From an uncultured Thermoplasmatales archaeon (lineage in GTDB: Archaea; Thermoplasmatota; SW-10-69-26), in NCBI GenBank assembly GCA_964396185.1, contig CAYNEI010000013.1:1528-65527 (forward strand): 64,000 nt of DNA, read 5' to 3'. Of the stretch, positions 37,282 to 62,736 are shown in pieces. The position numbers and the translations under genes were made by a program. Each line of letters opens with the position of its first letter. Position 1 is the first letter of the stretch. The notes beneath the pieces were generated by a model. It was not told the origin of the DNA, searched no databases, and saw only the letters and a list, made by a program, of their open reading frames with translations.

Positions 37282-38423
37282 CACGCACCACCTCCGTTGG
37301 TGCCGGCTGCTTCGTTCCTGAGCTTCACGGCGAGCTGGGCGGCCTCCTTGGGGTCCTGGGTGGCTTCGACACCTGCGGCCTCGAGGATCTCGCGCGCCTT
37401 CTCCTCGTTGACCCCACGGATGCGGGTGACCAGAGGCACATCCAGGCCTTCTTCCTCGAGGACCTGGACGACGCCCTTGGCCACCGTGTCAGCCTTGGTG
37501 ATGCCGCCGAAGAGGTTGAGGAAGACGACCGACGGGTTGGCCTTCTTCATGAGCCGGAAGCAGGTCATGACCTTCTCGGGCGAGTCCGTGCCGCCGAGGT
37601 CCAGGAAGACGCCACCGTTGCCGCCGTAGTGCTCGAGCGCGTCGAGGGTGGCCATGGTGAGCCCGGCGCCGTTGGCGATCACACCGATATCGCCGTCGAG
37701 CTGGACGAAGGCGATGCCCTTCTCCTGGGCCTCCTTCTCCAAGGCGGTCAGGTCCTCCTCGCCGCCCTCGATGTCCGGGTGGCGGAAGGTGGCTGCGTCG
37801 TTGATGCTGACCTTGGCATCCGCGGCGACGACCTTGCCCTCGCCGGTGATGGCCAAGGGGTTGATCTCCACGAGATCCGCGTCGCTTTCGAGGTAGGTGG
37901 TGTAGAGCTTGGAGAGGATGCTGGTGACCTGCTTGGCCTGATCCTTGTCCAGGCCAAGGTTGCCCACCAGGTGGCGGGCGTGGTAGGAGGAGAACCCGGT
38001 GAAGGGGTGGACGGTCATCTTGTGGATCTTGTCGTCCGGCACCGACTCGATGTCCACGCCGCCCTCCGCGCTGATCATGACCATGGGGAGCCTGCTGGAG
38101 CGGTCCAGCAGGACCGAGGCGTAGAGCTCCTGGGCGAAGTCGAGCATCTCGACCAAGAACACCTTCTCCACCGTGAGGCCCTTGATCTCCATGCCCAGGA
38201 TGTTGTCCAGGTGCTCACGGGCCTCATCCGCGTTGTCAGCGAACTTGACGCCGCCGGCCTTGCCGCGCCCGCCGGTGAGGACCTGGGCCTTGACCACGAC
38301 CGGGTAGGGGAGATCGTCCTTGACGGCCTCGAACTCCTCGACCGACGAGACCACAACACCCTCCGGGGCCGGGATCCCGAACCGCGTGAAGAGATCGCGC
38401 CCCTGGTACTCGTAGAGCTTCAT
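37281..38423 (-). CDS. sucC: Succinyl-CoA synthetase beta subunit
   Basis: [46 protein letters not shown]. Confidence 0.97.
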
Positions 38424-38621
38424 AGCAGCGCCCATGGGCCTGCCGTTGAAAAGGGTTGCGTGGAGACACGTCCAGGGGGGTGGGCGTCGAAGCACGGGAC
38501 TTGTTCCGGTCCCCGATAGATGGGTGAGCCGGTGTCGAGAGGTTGAACGTTTCTAGCAAACGCTGAGCAGCGCCCCAAACCATTAAATCCCCACCTACAG
38601 ATTGTTCGTCCTTGGTGCATC

Positions 38622-41516
38622 GTGCTGGCAAAACTGTTCCCTCGGAAAATCATGCTTGTGGCCGTCGTCGCTGCGATGTTGCTCGCCCCGGCGACTGCGA
38701 CCATCTCGCCGATCGTGGTTGCTGACGGACCGACTGCCGACGCAACCGCACTGGGCACCGACGAGGCGCGACGGGATGACCAGATGGACCTTGTCCGCCA
38801 CGTTCTGCAGGTTCTGGACAACGACGGGGAAGGGAGAGCCAGCCAACAGGCGATGTTCCAGGCCGCCCGGCTCGCGGTCGACCATCGTCAGACCCTGGTC
38901 GGCGGCCTCCTTCCTGAAGCCGCCGGGCCAGCTCTGGCTCAACTACACAGCAACCTGGACAGCGCCGAGGACCTGCTGGCCATCGCCGACACCGACCACG
39001 AGGACGACCTCGAACGAGCGGTCGCACTGGCCAAGGAAAGCACCCGGTGGCAGGCCGAAACCCTGGGCCTGCACTGGACGAACACCGTGCCACTGCATGC
39101 TCACCGATCCCCGAGCGAAGCGCTTGGCGAACTGGCCGAGCGCCAGGGCGTATCGCCCAGCGCCGAAGAGCGGGCCCGGATGAAGAGTCTCGACGTACTC
39201 CCCGAAGACCTACAGGACGCCTTGGTGCGGTTCGTGGACGCGTTCTTGGCCCTGGACACGGCCACACACCTTGCATATCAGAACGCCGACACCGCACGAT
39301 TGGAATCCCTCGCGGGAGAACATGGACGGCTGTGGGCGCAGCAAGGCCCCCTGGTCGAGCAGTACATGACCTTGAGCCTCAGCCTGGACATGAACCCAGA
39401 GGAGAGCCTTGCCCACCTGGAAGACGATGGCTGGTGGCCGGAGATCGCCCCGGTGGCCGACCTGCTCGGCGAGGCGGGCGTGGACTTCACCCCGGTCTTC
39501 CCGATCCGCAACCAGTTGCTTGACGCCGTACTCGGACTGGACCAGGCGCTCACCCTGCACCCGACGGCCGCATCCGCTTCCTGCGACTCCTTGCAACTTC
39601 CACCCGTCTTCAGCATCGACCTGGGCCAATGCGACAACGTCTACGCGCAGGACTTCGCACTCGTATTGGACGCCGGCGGCAACGACGTGTACAACAACAA
39701 CGCCGGAGGGAGCAATCTCGGTGGGCCGGACAACTGTCCCGCCGAGCTGAGCGAGGCAGGGACCTACTCGGCGGCCGCGCTCGTGGACCTGGGGACCGGA
39801 AGCGACCGGTTCGGCGACCCGCAAGCGCCCCGCGGATGCGGCGCGAACGGCGGCGGGAGCGTCGGCGTAGGGTTCCTGTTGACCGGGGGTGGAGACAACG
39901 AATACCATGCAGATGCCCACGGTACGAACGGTGGCGGCGGTCTCGCCGCCGCCGGGTTCCTGTTGGATGCATCGGGTAACGACACCTTCAACGCCGCGGG
40001 AGACGGCACGAACGGCGGCGGCAGCCTCGGCGTGGGGACGCTCATAAACGGCGGCGGGCACAACGAGTACAACGCGGGGAACTGGGGCACGAACGGCGGC
40101 GGCAGCATCGGCGTGGGTACCCTGATCGACGGCGGCTGGGGCAGCAAGTTCGACGCCGGGCTGGAGGGCACGAACGGGGGCGGGTTCTTCGGCGGCACCG
40201 GGTTGCTCTTCCATGGCCTTGGGGGAGGCACGTACAACGCCAGCGATTTCGGGACGAACGGCGGCGGCGGCCTCGGCGGCTCGGGTTTCCTGCTCAGCGG
40301 AGACCGAGACAGCACGTACAACTCCGCCGAGTACGGCACGAACGGAGGCGCAGGGATCGGCGTCGGTTTCCTCATGGACCTCGGCGGCGACACCGACTAC
40401 AGGTCCATCGCCATCAGCACCAACGGTGGATCGGGCAACGGAGCCGGTTTCCTGTTGGATGGCGGCGGGGACGACACGTTCACCACCGGCACCGCTGCTA
40501 CGAACGGCGGCGGTGCCGTCGGCGCGGGGTTCCTGCTGGACGCAGCGGGCAACGACACCTACATCGCCCCCGGCTCGGTCACCAACGGAGCCGCGGTCGG
40601 GTTGGGGCTTCTACTCGATGCTGGCGGCACCGACTACTATGAGGACCCCGCGATCCCAGGTGGCTTCTGCCTGGACTGCACGGTCGTCCCCAAAGGACCC
40701 CTCGGCATGCACGTCGACAGCGACGACATCTCGCTCAACCTACCGATCTGCATCCTGCACCCGACGATCTTGATCACGGAAGAGGTAGGCACACAAGGAT
40801 TCGTGCTTGACCAGGAGGACCCCACAACGGGACGGCCCCTCTACCGACCCGGAAGCGGTGTCACCAGCGGGTCCGGCACCGCGGAGGATCCGTACGTCAT
40901 CGAGGATTGGTGCATCCCCGGCGGGGCGGCGACCGGAACCCCCCGGATCGGGATCCAGGGCACGGACAGTCACGTCGTGATCCGCAACAACACCCTTGCG
41001 CACGCGGAGGGGGTGAACCAGCAGTGGCTGGATCACGGAGTCCTGCTCGACTCGGCACACAACGTGACGATGGAGGACAACCGGATCGGGAACGTCTTCC
41101 ACTCCGGCGTAGCCGTCCTCGGCTCGAGCAACACCGAGATCCGCGGCAACACGATCGACGGCCTCGGGAGCGGCATCTTCCTGGATGGATCGCAAGAGAC
41201 CGTGATCCGCGCGAACACGATCGAAACCTTCCCCAATCGAGGGCCGAGTATACGGATCCTGGATTCCGAAGGGACCGCGATCCATGACAACGACCTTTCA
41301 GGTGGTACGGACGTGGCCTTGCAGGCGGTGGGTGTCGAGACGCCGATCCTGGCCACGAACAATTGGTGGGGGCACGACTCGGGACCCGGCGGCGGTGTCG
41401 AGGATGCATGCACGGGCGCGGTGGCAGAAGGCGACGGGTACGGCATCGAGCTTGAGGATGCTTCCATCTGCTTCGACCCATGGCGGTCACAGCCCAACGC
41501 GGAAGCCGGAGCTTAG
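38622..41516 (+). CDS. Large secreted protein with 10 Gly/Asn/Asp-rich 27-28 aa repeats and a C-terminal right-handed beta-helix (NosD/CASH-like)
   Basis: Signal peptide; TNGGG..G.G.L.D.GG.D.Y repeats; N.I.GN.I repeats; NNWWG. Confidence 0.8.
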   Translation: MLAKLFPRKIMLVAVVAAMLLAPATATISPIVVADGPTADATALGTDEARRDDQMDLVRHVLQVLDNDGEGRASQQAMFQAARLAVDHRQTLVGGLLPEAAGPALAQLHSNLDSAEDLLAIADTDHEDDLERAVALAKESTRWQAETLGLHWTNTVPLHAHRSPSEALGELAERQGVSPSAEERARMKSLDVLPEDLQDALVRFVDAFLALDTATHLAYQNADTARLESLAGEHGRLWAQQGPLVEQYMTLSLSLDMNPEESLAHLEDDGWWPEIAPVADLLGEAGVDFTPVFPIRNQLLDAVLGLDQALTLHPTAASASCDSLQLPPVFSIDLGQCDNVYAQDFALVLDAGGNDVYNNNAGGSNLGGPDNCPAELSEAGTYSAAALVDLGTGSDRFGDPQAPRGCGANGGGSVGVGFLLTGGGDNEYHADAHGTNGGGGLAAAGFLLDASGNDTFNAAGDGTNGGGSLGVGTLINGGGHNEYNAGNWGTNGGGSIGVGTLIDGGWGSKFDAGLEGTNGGGFFGGTGLLFHGLGGGTYNASDFGTNGGGGLGGSGFLLSGDRDSTYNSAEYGTNGGAGIGVGFLMDLGGDTDYRSIAISTNGGSGNGAGFLLDGGGDDTFTTGTAATNGGGAVGAGFLLDAAGNDTYIAPGSVTNGAAVGLGLLLDAGGTDYYEDPAIPGGFCLDCTVVPKGPLGMHVDSDDISLNLPICILHPTILITEEVGTQGFVLDQEDPTTGRPLYRPGSGVTSGSGTAEDPYVIEDWCIPGGAATGTPRIGIQGTDSHVVIRNNTLAHAEGVNQQWLDHGVLLDSAHNVTMEDNRIGNVFHSGVAVLGSSNTEIRGNTIDGLGSGIFLDGSQETVIRANTIETFPNRGPSIRILDSEGTAIHDNDLSGGTDVALQAVGVETPILATNNWWGHDSGPGGGVEDACTGAVAEGDGYGIELEDASICFDPWRSQPNAEAGA

Positions 41517-41683
41517 AACAAGCGCAACACGGACCCGCCCCCTGTCCCAATCGCCAAATCCCAGATCGTCTTAGGCACACCGTTCGGAAGGTGGTCGACG
41601 TCGGCCGCCGTGGGTGAGCCGAGTGATGATCCGGCGGGAAGCTGGCGCCGGCGGGTGAGCCCGAGCTGGGTCGAGAATGGATG

Positions 41684-41943
41684 AGCCGCCAGAAGTTCGG
41701 CGGCGTGTGAAGGTCAACCGCCCGGCCGACCCTGCGGCAAGGGTACCGGGCGTCGCATCCGGTCTTTCGACCTCCGGGTTCTACCCCGGCCATCCCGGTT
41801 GTCCCCTCAGGAAGCAAGCCGAAGCTTGTTCCCCTCCGGGTGTGTTCTCCATCCCCGCGAACGGGTGTAGGAGTGGACGCGAGTATGCCGCGCGTCTCTC
41901 CGAGATGCGGATGGTCCACGACGCAAGCGCCGTGTGCAACCCT
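41684..41943 (-). ncRNA. Unidentified structured RNA, copy 1
   Basis: Aligns end to end with 43188-43448 with compensatory changes; UUCG, GAAA and CUUG loops on the minus strand. Confidence 0.8.
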
Positions 41944-42120
41944 CCATGGGTGCCGCTTGCGTATCTAGTTGTCGGGGGCCCTTCCGCTGGAGCCGGTGGG
42001 GCGCATCCAGCCGTGCGCCTCGACGGTTCACGACCCAGGCGACGCTGCACGCGCCGGTACCTTCGCCGACCCCCGAGGGCATCCTTGACATGCCTCCGGT
42101 CCCCATGCGCATGTGAGCCC

Positions 42121-43134
42121 ATGATCGACGACCGCCGCCATCCGCTGCTCTCGAAGGCTGAACCCGTGGGTCAGATCGAACTCGGCCAGGGCTCGAGCCG
42201 CAAGCAGCGCCTCGGCCAGCGCCAGGTCCAGGAGGTCACGGCCAGCCAGGCGCTCAGCGACTTCACCATGGGCGGCAAGGCCAGTGGCGTGGCCTGGAGC
42301 CTCAACCCGTACGCTGGATGCCACCACGCCTGCACGTACTGCTACGTGCCCAACACGATCCACGCCGATCGGCGCCGCTGGGGCAACTACGTGTTGGTCA
42401 AGCGCAACCTCCTGGCTCTCCTGCGCAAGGAGCTCGATCGCAAGGATGTGCGCACGGTCTACCTGTCCACCGCCACCGACCCCTACCAACCCATCGAGGC
42501 CGAGCGCGAGCTCACCCGCAAGGCGCTCAAGCTCTTGGCCCGCCACGACTGGCCAGTCGAGATCCTCACGCGCAGCCCATTGATCCTGCGGGACCTCGAC
42601 GTGCTCGATCGGTTCACGAACCTGCGCGTGGGCCTGAGCGTGCCCACCCTGGACGACGAGCTGCGCGCCATCCTCGAGCCTGGGGCACCAGCCATCCGTG
42701 CCAGGCTGGACACCCTCCAACGCCTCTCCCAGGCCGGGCTCACGGCGTTCGCCAACTACGCACCGGCCTACCCGCTCACCGGTGAGACCACCGTGGAGGA
42801 CATCGCCGAGGCCTTCGCTGAGGCCGGGGTCCAGTGGGTCAACACCTCCTTCTGGCGACGCCGCGGGAGCATCGTGGTCCCCATCTGGGACCTGCTCAAG
42901 GGCACCGAGCATGAGGACCTGGCCAGCTTCATCGCCAACCGCCCTCCACAACACGAGCTGCGCGAAGAGCTCACGGAGGCCATGGACCGGGTGGGCCTAC
43001 CCCTGCACACGGCGTTCTACAACCCACCCTTCCAGATCGCAGGTTTCCGCTCCCGGTACAAGCAGCTCAAGCTAGGACAAGTGCCGATCGAAGCGCCAAG
43101 GCAAACCCAGCACCGCCCAAGCTTGGAGCGCTGA
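42121..43134 (+). CDS. Radical SAM protein, spore photoproduct lyase (SplB)-like family
   Basis: SLNPYAGCHHACTYCY (CxxxCxxC), STATDPYQP.E, LTRSPLILRDLD, VGLSV. Confidence 0.9.
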   Translation: MIDDRRHPLLSKAEPVGQIELGQGSSRKQRLGQRQVQEVTASQALSDFTMGGKASGVAWSLNPYAGCHHACTYCYVPNTIHADRRRWGNYVLVKRNLLALLRKELDRKDVRTVYLSTATDPYQPIEAERELTRKALKLLARHDWPVEILTRSPLILRDLDVLDRFTNLRVGLSVPTLDDELRAILEPGAPAIRARLDTLQRLSQAGLTAFANYAPAYPLTGETTVEDIAEAFAEAGVQWVNTSFWRRRGSIVVPIWDLLKGTEHEDLASFIANRPPQHELREELTEAMDRVGLPLHTAFYNPPFQIAGFRSRYKQLKLGQVPIEAPRQTQHRPSLER

Positions 43135-43187
43135 ACATCGCCCAGGGCCCAAGCCAGAAGGTACCGCAGGCTAGCCGATGAGGGATC

Positions 43188-43448
43188 AGCCGCCAGAAAG
43201 ATGGCGGTGTGTGAAGGTCAGACAGCCCGGTTCACCGTGCGGCATCGGTCCCGGGCGTCGCATCCGGCCTTTCGGCCTCCGACCTCTCAGCCGGCCGTCC
43301 CGGTTGTCCCCTCAGGAAGCGTGGCGAACCACGTTCCCCTCCGGTTCAGTTCCCCATCCCGTCGAGCGGGTGTGGGGTTGGGCGCGAGTATGCCGCGCGC
43401 CTCTCCGAGATGCGGATGGTCCACGACGCAAGCGCCGTGTGCAACCCT
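43188..43448 (-). ncRNA. Unidentified structured RNA, copy 2
   Basis: As copy 1; TATA-like ttata on the minus strand at about 43465-43469. Confidence 0.8.
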
Positions 43449-43579
43449 ACGTGGGTCTCGGCGGTATAAGTAACCTTGCAGTGCACCCTCGGGGCAGCCG
43501 CTGGGTTCGGTGGACGCCGTCTGCAACCGGGGGCTACTTTGAAATACCCCTCCCAGGTTCGCTAGCCAAGGTGCGAGAC

Positions 43580-44404
43580 GTGTCAACGAGTTTCTCGGAG
43601 GGCGACATCGTCCTCGTGGATTTCGAAGCCTGGACCGACGACGGTGACCTCTTCGACACGACCCGCGAAGCGGTGGCCAAGGACGCTGGCTGGGATCTCG
43701 AGGAGCAGTCCTTCGACCCCCTGCCTGTCGTGCTCGGGGCCCAGCGCGTGGTCCCCGGCTTCGAGGCGGCCCTGCTCGCCGCGGGCTTGGATGAGGAGAA
43801 GGAGGTCGAGGTCCCCCCGGGCGAGGCCTTCGGGGAGCACAACCCCGACCGCGTCAGGGTGTTCCCCCGCCGGGACTTCGAGAAGAAGGAGATCGACCCC
43901 TACCCAGGCACGCGCGTCGAGATGGGCGGCAAGCGCGGCACCGTGGTCCAAGCGACGGCGAGCCGGGTGCGCGTGGATTTCAACCATCCGTTCGCGGGCA
44001 AGACCCTCACGTACAAGTTCAAGATCGTCGAGCGGGTCGAGGACGATGAGGAGCGGCTCCGGTCCCTGCTCAAGCTCGACTACGGGGTCAAGAAGGCCGA
44101 GGACCTGGAGGTCGAGGTGGACGGCACGACGGCCACGATCCGGCTCCCGGAGAGCGCCATGTTCGACACGGAGTGGTTCATGGCCAAGCACCGGCTCGGG
44201 CACAGCGTCTTCGAACACACGGAGCTGGAAACCGTGGAGCTCGTCGAGGCGCTCACGCGGGAGGACTTCGAGGCCCACGACCACGGCCATGGCGACGCGC
44301 ACCCGGCCGTGGAGGACGCCGTCGAGGAGGCTGGCGACGAAGCGGCCGGGGAGACGGACGCTGAGACGTCCGACGAGGACGCAGAGGACAAGGAAGAGGC
44401 CTAA
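43580..44404 (+). CDS. slyD: FKBP-type peptidyl-prolyl isomerase with insert-in-flap domain and His/acidic tail
   Basis: G..FDTT, VVPGFEAAL, PPGEAFG, VDFNHPFAGKTL, HDHGHGDAH tail. Confidence 0.92.
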   Translation: MSTSFSEGDIVLVDFEAWTDDGDLFDTTREAVAKDAGWDLEEQSFDPLPVVLGAQRVVPGFEAALLAAGLDEEKEVEVPPGEAFGEHNPDRVRVFPRRDFEKKEIDPYPGTRVEMGGKRGTVVQATASRVRVDFNHPFAGKTLTYKFKIVERVEDDEERLRSLLKLDYGVKKAEDLEVEVDGTTATIRLPESAMFDTEWFMAKHRLGHSVFEHTELETVELVEALTREDFEAHDHGHGDAHPAVEDAVEEAGDEAAGETDAETSDEDAEDKEEA

Positions 44405-49722: not shown

Positions 49723-49797
49723 GGGCGAGTAGCTTAGCTTGGCTGGAGCACCCGGCTGATAACCGGGAGGTCGCCGGTTCAAATCCGGTCTCGCCCA
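49723..49797 (+). tRNA. tRNA-Ile (GAU)
   Basis: gggcgag/ctcgccc acceptor stem, cccgg-ctGATaa-ccggg anticodon arm, ttcaaat T-loop; ttata at 49691. Confidence 0.95.
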
Positions 49798-50165
49798 CTG
49801 GCGCGCCAGCGACAGAAGGAGAGGTGCCCACCAGGGCACCCCCTCACGGGATGGTTCTTGCAAACCGCGTCCAAGGTTCCGATGGACCGGATTTGAACGC
49901 CGGGCCATCAGGCCCGGGAGCTGCGCTCGTCAGAGCGCAATACGCTGGTCCTCCCCAACGGCGTCTCAACTTCGCCGCGCCGTTCGTACGAAGCTGGAGG
50001 TCCGGCGACACCGTGAAGCGGACCTCCAGGCATGAGCGAAGCGGGCTCGCCCACTGGCGCGCCAGCGACAGAAGGAGAGGTGCCCACCAGGGCACCCCCT
50101 CACGGGATGGTTCTTGCAAACCGCGTCCAAGGTTCCCATGGACCGGATTCGACCGCCGGGCCATC
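49790..50165 (+). repeat. 120-bp direct repeat (49790-49909 and 50046-50165) starting at the tRNA-Ile 3' end
   Basis: 117/120 identical, 256-bp offset; first 8 nt are ctcgccca. Confidence 0.9.
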
Positions 50166-62663: not shown

Positions 62664-62736
62664 AGCCCGGTAGTGTAGTGGCCAATCATACGAGGTTCTG
62701 GTCCTCGTTACCCAGGTTCGAATCCTGGCCGGGCTA
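62664..62736 (+). tRNA. tRNA-Gln (CUG)
   Basis: agcccgg/ccgggct stem, cgagg-ttCTGgt-cctcg arm, gttcgaatc. Confidence 0.95.

Follow-up and report, generated by a model that had tools for sequence, protein, structure and literature searches.

Few large RNAs combine a complex fold with conserved tertiary contacts, and historically those that do have proved to be ribozymes, riboswitches or the cores of ribonucleoproteins (RNPs). To our knowledge, the orphan classes of large RNA are so far almost all bacterial, with very few in archaea. Here we describe an RNA family found in a 64,000-nt stretch of DNA (the window) from an uncultured Thermoplasmatales archaeon (GenBank assembly GCA_964396185.1, contig CAYNEI010000013.1, positions 1,528 to 65,527). 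The window carries two direct copies of an element of about 275 bp, at 41672-41951 (copy 1) and 43176-43456 (copy 2). They are 84% identical, and their homology stops sharply at both element edges. A first-pass annotation of the window had proposed two covarying copies of a non-coding RNA (ncRNA) of about 260 nt around an SplB-like radical SAM gene, and both copies are confirmed. They belong to a real, non-coding, structured RNA family that is supported by covariation, has promoter-like signals and is independent of the radical SAM gene. We consider it probable that the copies are paralogues within a new RNA family whose members are about 250 nt long, stand free, fold compactly and act in trans, with an invariant junction that serves as a binding or active site.

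Several described RNAs resemble this element in part. The raiA motif (RF03072), OLE (RF01071), ROOL (RF03087) and GOLLD (RF01998) are also free-standing, with ornate folds supported by covariation, highly conserved junctions and structural loop-loop contacts, and their functions were not known when they were discovered. Cryo-electron microscopy of OLE, ROOL and GOLLD revealed homo-oligomers that are partly held together by kissing loops (PMC12286853). Unlike these RNAs, with which it has no sequence or structure homology (no Rfam match), the window RNA is smaller (about 250 nt), occurs in Thermoplasmatota only, is multi-copy in some genomes and has an archaeal promoter with a B recognition element (BRE) and TATA-type box. 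The archaeal RNase P RNA (RF00373) and signal recognition particle (SRP) RNA (RF01857) are similar to it in size, in being stable RNAs with their own promoters, and in having multi-helix junctions and long-range tertiary pairs between loops. However, their covariance models find no match in the element, and the window RNA is patchy across the phylum and therefore not universal like RNase P and SRP RNAs. Identity with either was rejected, since both are encoded elsewhere in the genome (G000; 3.17 Mb in 181 contigs, 66.8% G+C): the RNase P RNA, also present in eight of nine relatives tested, at G000:C29:10136-10480 (135.8 bits) and the SRP RNA at G000:C18:34850-35164 (184.3 bits). The cobalamin (RF00174) and lysine (RF00168) riboswitches likewise have a multi-way junction, invariant purine-rich joining strands, a clamp between distant loops and a GNRA loop. 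The junction words presumably recall, loosely, those of the glycine (RF00504) and ykkC (RF00442) RNAs, and none of these four models matches at E <= 10. Finally, the HEARO/omega RNA of IscB, the right-end element RNA (reRNA) of TnpB and miniature inverted-repeat transposable elements (MITEs) are also multi-copy, structured, about 150-300 nt long, often pseudoknotted and patchy.

At gathering thresholds, Rfam 15 (4227 families) identified two tRNAs in the whole window and nothing on the element. At E <= 5, 12 diverse homologous loci gave no match on the RNA. At E <= 10, the region 41500-43700 gave only a sub-threshold Pyrobac-1 (RF01722) match and a chance match to HIV-1 DIS. The Pyrobac-1 alignment, the sole one obtained on the element, was rejected as chance: it scores 23.8 bits at 43216-43307 (gathering score 40; E = 0.2 for a 2.2-kb search), is found on copy 2 only, needs a 44-nt insertion and pairs residues that covariation places in other helices. 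Thus, the earlier inference of a new class of structured RNA is supported, in the window as in the 12 diverse members. As judged from these searches, the family lies outside Rfam 15 and appears to be previously undescribed.

Fold and covariation

Taken at its longest, with G1 of GGAGGGTTGC as the first base and with the 3' hairpin and its tail included, the RNA gene of copy 1 covers 41679-41945 on the minus strand. The covariance model R1 scores it 261.6 bits over all of its 245 positions (41702-41945), and R2, a model of the 163-position core, gives 140.5 bits (41753-41916). The gene of copy 2 covers 43183-43450, also on the minus strand, with 254.9 bits under R1 (43206-43450) and 144.7 bits under R2 (43258-43421). 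Both belong to type A of the family. The minus-strand assignment, already made in the first pass, is upheld because the conserved G-U pairs, which would become A-C on the opposite strand, fix the strand, and because the minus-strand fold is stronger: copy 1 folds at -134.7 kcal/mol, beating shuffled sequence (z = -3.2), whereas the plus strand folds no better than shuffles (z = -1.2).

The fold has about 12 helices, numbered here from G1 of copy 1 (window position 41945). P2 (12-18/23-29) stands near the 5' end. The long-range helices P3 (33-38/185-190) and P4 (39-46/148-155) enclose a multi-way junction of P5 (50-55/65-70, loop CGGCAUACU), P6 (73-76/96-99, with a variable tip) and P7/P8. P7 (107-108/140-141) is invariant, hence no covariation signal is possible there, and P8 (112-115/134-137 and 118-122/127-131) ends in a UUCG loop. 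P9 (157-161/168-172) is followed by the GNRA-capped hairpin P10 (174-177/182-185, GAAA loop) and by a separate arm of P11 (195-200/221-226) and P12 (202-205/214-217, loop UUGCCGCA). The loops of P5 and P12 form a kissing pseudoknot of 5-6 bp (56-60/207-211), in which CGGCA of L5 (41886-41890 in copy 1, 43391-43395 in copy 2) pairs with UGCCG of L12 (41735-41739 and 43240-43244). This pair is the sole long inverted repeat in copy 2 (43236-43245/43390-43399). All type-A copies have a 3' terminal hairpin with covarying stems and a U-rich loop, GCCGCC-GAACUUCU-GGCGGC (41685-41704 in copy 1, 43190-43207 in copy 2), and the f30 form of the RNA, from the second clade described below, has one additional 5' hairpin.

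The junction is lined by the near-invariant strand GAGGGGACAA (41799-41808 in copy 1, 43304-43313 in copy 2), together with AGAG (41897-41899) and GAACNNACCGGAGG. These columns are invariant in the alignments and are kept in the second clade as GGGGAAAAACC. Across both clades the joining strands AGAG, GAACYGAACCGGAGG and GGGGAMAACC and the L5, L12 and GNRA loops are near-invariant, while P6, P8 and P9 vary in length and sequence. The purine-rich strand singled out by the first-pass annotation is nearly invariant, as GAGGGGAMAA.

Compared with copy 1, copy 2 has compensatory changes in P5, P6, P8, P9, P10 and P12, and RNAalifold on eight copies gave 71 pairs, 20 of them compensatory. Twelve type-A copies were also aligned with MAFFT, which ignores structure; pairing holds in 92.5% of the cells of this alignment, whereas slid controls, with the partners moved by 1-3 columns, reach 34-46%. 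Double changes occur there in 26 pairs of the true fold, against 2-8 in the controls, and none of 500 shuffles attains the observed values. An alignment of 24 members that was fitted to the model and spans both clades shows pairing in 93.1% of cells, where slid controls give 35-43%; double changes occur in 59 of its 74 pairs, and its covariation score reaches 0.586, with 0.06-0.10 for the controls. When 34 members were scanned without bias for helices of four or more columns with at least 80% of cells paired, exactly P2, P3, P4, P5, P8, P9, P11 and the pseudoknot were recovered. The compensatory changes thus exceed both the slid and the shuffled controls, which identifies the element as a structured ncRNA.

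The pseudoknot covaries as well. Pairing at its five positions is 96.7-98.3%, and at least four lineages show double changes. G58-C209 becomes A-U (GCGACA/UGUCGC) in L093b, L078 and L032+L055, and the tandem neighbour L093a retains G-C; A60-U207 becomes U-A (GCGGCU/AGCCGC) in L033. The complementarity of the loops GCGGCA and UGCCGC, first noticed in the two copies, is real. Six helices that the first-pass annotation read from the same sequences are likewise there, with covariation both between copies 1 and 2 and among the homologues: gacgcg/cgcgtc (P5), ctcc/ggag (P6), acaagc-UUCG-gcttgc (P8), ccggg/cccgg (P9), ggtc-GAAA-gacc (P10) and accc/gggt (P12). On the other hand, the long-range helix cgcatc-t-cgg/ccg-gatgcg had been placed out of register, with 57.5% of its cells paired family-wide; the true arrangement is two helices, P3 (97% paired) and P4 (95% paired). 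The loop of P9 had been likened to a T-loop; its sequence is not conserved, and it is therefore not a T-loop.

Distribution and genomic context

Homologues were searched for in 401 genomes with BLAST and with R1 and R2; the E-values from these home-built models are rough. RNA homologues were found in Thermoplasmatota only, in two clades. In the window's class, five of 21 genomes contain the RNA, namely G000, G003, G004 and G005 (family f1) and G011 (family f2), with one to four copies each and many copies at contig ends. In family f30, which belongs to a different class, it is present in 28 of 32 genomes and 10 of 11 genera, mostly as a single copy, and R2 recovers two of the four genomes missed by R1. 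No credible match to R1 or R2 was obtained in the other sampled genomes of the phylum (about 350), and R2 found no new clade over the 401 genomes. Weak matches in family f8 were rejected because of many broken pairs. A pattern scan of 185,579 species genomes yielded 45 loci, and those that pass the model are labelled Thermoplasmatota, save one probably mis-binned 4.3-kb contig and one unclassified metagenome-assembled genome. A metagenome scan gave seven contigs, all of which pass the model, and no RNA match was found in viral contigs, phage records or plasmids. The contig L076 (CAYREV010000088.1, 4340 bp), binned as 'uncultured Balneolaceae bacterium', bears an RNA copy at either end together with a radical SAM orthologue of 75% identity; it was probably mis-binned and belongs to Thermoplasmatota. 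Going by these genomes, the RNA is a core feature of family f30, and a patchy, accessory and multi-copy one in the window's class.

The window's genome has at least four copies, of which three are full and one, on contig C25, is truncated where the contig ends. Copy 1 and the copy on contig C34 share 98% identity over the transcribed part only; they have different promoter types, and either type also occurs in other genera. This pattern is better explained by gene conversion between old paralogues than by a recent insertion. Tandem copies, each with its own promoter, follow a tRNA-Leu gene in G011 (three copies) and in the metagenome contig L093 (two copies). In G011 (L015, G011:C8, 1082-1350), three direct repeats of the 3' end of tRNA-Leu(UAA) come after the tRNA gene. 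Each has an antisense copy of the T-arm, and they resemble att-type scars; beyond them are the triple RNA array and a nuclease/NTPase-like accessory gene. The window also has a 124-nt direct repeat (49786-49909 and 50042-50165, 97% identical) that starts inside the 3' end of tRNA-Ile (49723-49798).

At every copy, an A/T-rich box (CTTATAC, TAGATAC, TATAAA or TATATC) stands behind a purine-rich stretch on the RNA strand, and in both clades it is 13-18 nt upstream of the conserved GTAGGGTTGC motif. Copy 2 has the TATA-like box CTTATAC at 43464-43470, with a BRE-like purine-rich stretch before it, and the same box at the same distance precedes the C34, G004 and L076 copies. TATAAA/TATAT boxes precede the G011 and L093 copies. 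For copy 1, the weaker TATA-like box TAGATAC is read from the sequence at 41961-41967. The first-pass annotation had credited copy 2 with a clear box and copy 1 with a weak one, and both boxes stand; the upstream sequence type of copy 1 is, however, common to the G005:C261 copy and is therefore an old promoter variant, not a sign of a promoterless insertion. Its view of the two RNAs as free-standing also holds, in that each has its own BRE/TATA-like element and neither is the leader of a same-strand gene in the window.

The motif itself is at 43441-43450 in copy 2 and, as GGAGGGTTGC, at 41936-41945 in copy 1. In leaderless genes of the same genomes, the TATA box is 22-24 nt from the ATG. Because of this spacing, the probable start of transcription is about 8 nt inside the motif, near 41937 in copy 1 and near 43442 (about G9) in copy 2. 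Alternatively, the motif may tentatively be taken to supply the 5' strand of P1 (1-9/230-239), a weak closing helix rich in G-U pairs that is 88% paired in type A, mostly by conservation. P1 was not recovered in the unbiased scan of 34 members, and RNAduplex gave z of about 0 for 5' regions against 3' tails. A start inside the motif would leave the 5' side of P1 untranscribed. At the other end, the hairpin with the U-rich loop is a probable terminator or 3'-end protector. Many tRNA genes of G000 have GGTTGCC or GATTGCC about 11 nt after the TATA box, for example upstream of tRNA-Gln at 62664, and this looks like a promoter-proximal element. The similar GGGTTGC follows the TATA box of the RNA genes, at another spacing.

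The neighbours of the RNA copies include radical SAM, FKBP26, beta-helix, STAND ATPase, DUF1761, DnaJ and SnoaL genes. In the window, the SplB-like radical SAM gene (42121-43134, plus strand; Pfam Radical_SAM, 5.5e-19) lies outside the element and is a neighbour only; it is convergent with copy 2, as the first-pass annotation had implied. The FKBP26-type prolyl isomerase gene starts at 43580 (plus strand). On the other side, a beta-helix/NosD-like gene of 964 aa (38622-41516, plus strand) has an internal periodic repeat of 81-84 nt (39818-40570). This gene and copy 1 are missing from the orthologous site of G003, where the radical SAM gene comes directly after the homologue of window 38001-38456. 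The C34 copy is located between a STAND-type ATPase gene and a small secreted-protein gene, and the C25 copy precedes a BNR-like lipoprotein gene.

The surroundings of the RNA are conserved in family f30. Upstream there is often a divergent gene such as dnaJ or DUF1761, and a SnoaL_2 (NTF2-like) gene of about 115 aa lies downstream on the same strand (for example, L028 1826-2173, among the f30 loci L028-L043), sometimes with a secreted-protein gene between. Among the 401 genomes, the SnoaL_2 protein is found in all 19 of the f30 genomes sampled and in none other. In 17 of the 19 the gene is on the RNA contig, on the same strand and 28 nt to 3.7 kb downstream, and it has its own TATA box at leaderless spacing. 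No downstream protein shared between the clades was found; the sole cross-clade similarity is a weak, BNR-like one between the protein downstream of the C25 copy and an ORF upstream in L038. In both clades a protein-folding gene is divergent from the RNA gene at about 130-155 bp, FKBP26 in the window (43580-44404, plus strand) and dnaJ in several f30 genera (L028 212-1345, minus strand), which may be coincidence.

Alternative explanations

Two long plus-strand open reading frames (41677-43134 and 43178-44404; one of 491 aa) pass through the two RNA copies and continue in frame into the radical SAM and FKBP26 genes, as if the repeats coded for shared N-terminal extensions of these proteins. We rejected this protein-coding reading, to which we give practically no chance. 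The extensions are not coding because substitutions between the copies are even over the three codon positions (17/13/11) and so without codon bias, because a 1-nt indel separates the copies, and because the translated extensions are low-complexity and Arg/Pro-rich, as expected for spurious frames in 67% G+C DNA; in addition, RNA homologues elsewhere are unfused to any ORF and the base-pair covariation is strong. Gene callers would probably annotate false N-terminal extensions of about 130-150 aa on both genes, whose real starts are near 42121 and 43580. The proposal of the first-pass annotation that the RNA is a partner or substrate of the radical SAM enzyme, to which a regulator can be added, has in its favour a convergent adjacency that recurs in G000, G003:C321 and L076. 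These are close relatives, however, and the adjacency is therefore local synteny. Orthologues of the enzyme occur in 16 of the 21 class genomes against five for the RNA; G002 has a 75% identical orthologue without the RNA, while in G004, G005 and f30 the RNA is present but no close orthologue lies near it. Given this phyletic mismatch and the unrelated contexts of the C34 and C25 copies and of all f30 copies, the partnership was rejected as very improbable.

A mobile or selfish element, such as a MITE-like repeat, a repeat like a short interspersed nuclear element (SINE), an omega RNA or the cargo of an integrative island, would account for multiple copies, 98% identity between dispersed copies, contigs that break inside copies and the patchiness in the window's class (5/21), as well as for arrays directly downstream of tRNA-Leu, which in G011 come after three att-like repeats beside accessory genes, and for the absence of copy 1 and the beta-helix gene from the G003 site. 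Nevertheless, we regard it as quite unlikely. Neither copy with its flanks has terminal inverted repeats, no flanking direct repeats were seen by eye, and no transposase, TnpB/IscB, integrase or reverse transcriptase adjoins any copy. Unlike omega RNA, reRNA and MITEs, the RNA is single-copy and at a fixed syntenic locus across 10 f30 genera and has no variable guide segment; both of its ends are conserved or, as the 3' region, a covarying hairpin. Viral contigs, phage records and plasmids gave no match, and the two promoter types are old and common to several genera. The idea of a duplicated element that captured the radical SAM gene is not supported either: terminal inverted repeats and a nearby transposase are lacking, and the copies are old paralogues (84% identity) with different promoter types. 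A cis-acting riboswitch or leader, in which a large aptamer would control a same-strand downstream gene by stopping transcription early at the U-rich 3' end, is unlikely. In its favour, a co-oriented SnoaL_2 or secreted-protein gene always lies downstream of the RNA in f30, at times at a distance of just 25-30 nt; same-strand genes follow the C34 and C25 copies; and the junction, kissing loop and invariant joining strands resemble the cobalamin and lysine riboswitches. Both window copies, however, face convergent genes, so that, as first stated, neither is the 5' untranslated region of a same-strand gene; each copy in the tandem arrays has a separate promoter; the genes downstream have TATA boxes of their own, 22-24 nt ahead of the start codon, as is typical of leaderless archaeal mRNAs; type-A genomes have no SnoaL gene; the RNA carries a 3' hairpin of its own; and none of the riboswitch models matches at E <= 10. 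A catalytic RNA of a new ribozyme class, with the invariant junction as an active site clamped by the kissing loop, is improbable to a similar degree. The junction is extremely conserved across two deeply diverged clades while P6, P8 and P9 vary freely, the tertiary fold is backed by covariation, and the RNA is near-universal and single-copy in one family. But neither a substrate nor a cleavage site can be discerned, the models of known ribozymes do not match, and binding of a protein or ligand explains the conservation pattern equally well.

Proposed role of the RNA

The reading we favour is that of a free-standing RNA that acts in trans. Several points weigh against it. Only about 400 of the phylum's genomes were sampled, and no prior description was found in a full-text search of the open-access literature, which has limited coverage. 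Model fitting of the 24-sequence alignment favours structure, and the MAFFT control covers type A only. Expression, abundance and both transcript ends are deduced from sequence alone, and the 5' end is ambiguous, as a TATA-based start would remove helix P1. No SnoaL homologue was found in G000 by tblastn or hidden Markov model search, and in f30 the association of RNA and SnoaL is confounded by shared ancestry.

As a trans-acting RNA, it would be compact and globular, and the kissing loop and the GNRA loop would hold the fold around the invariant junction as the functional site. This site would most likely bind a protein partner, with the RNA as an RNP scaffold or a regulator; a small-molecule pocket or a catalytic centre would be less likely. 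A leader role in cis for the f30 RNAs, whose co-orientation with the SnoaL gene is constant, and a mobile origin of the type-A copies would be minor possibilities. In f30, the clade-specific SnoaL/NTF2-like protein encoded downstream would be the first candidate partner. The several copies of G000 would be kept similar by gene conversion and would probably serve dosage. A bolder version, which we hold to be possible but doubtful, is that the RNA forms the core of a new archaeal RNP or RNA machine that works as a ribozyme, senses a ligand or assembles with itself, in the last case through kissing of L5 and L12 between molecules, as in OLE, ROOL and GOLLD. Its gene may be a single-copy one of housekeeping grade in f30, where it would work with the SnoaL-like protein, and may have spread in multiple copies into a second, probably halophilic, class.

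The comparative support for this family is unusually clean, with 59 covarying pairs and a covarying pseudoknot, and it comes with a clear phyletic pattern and a concrete candidate protein partner in one clade. Annotating the RNA family also mends the protein models of the radical SAM and FKBP genes. The RNA is amenable to direct in vitro testing even without a cultured host.

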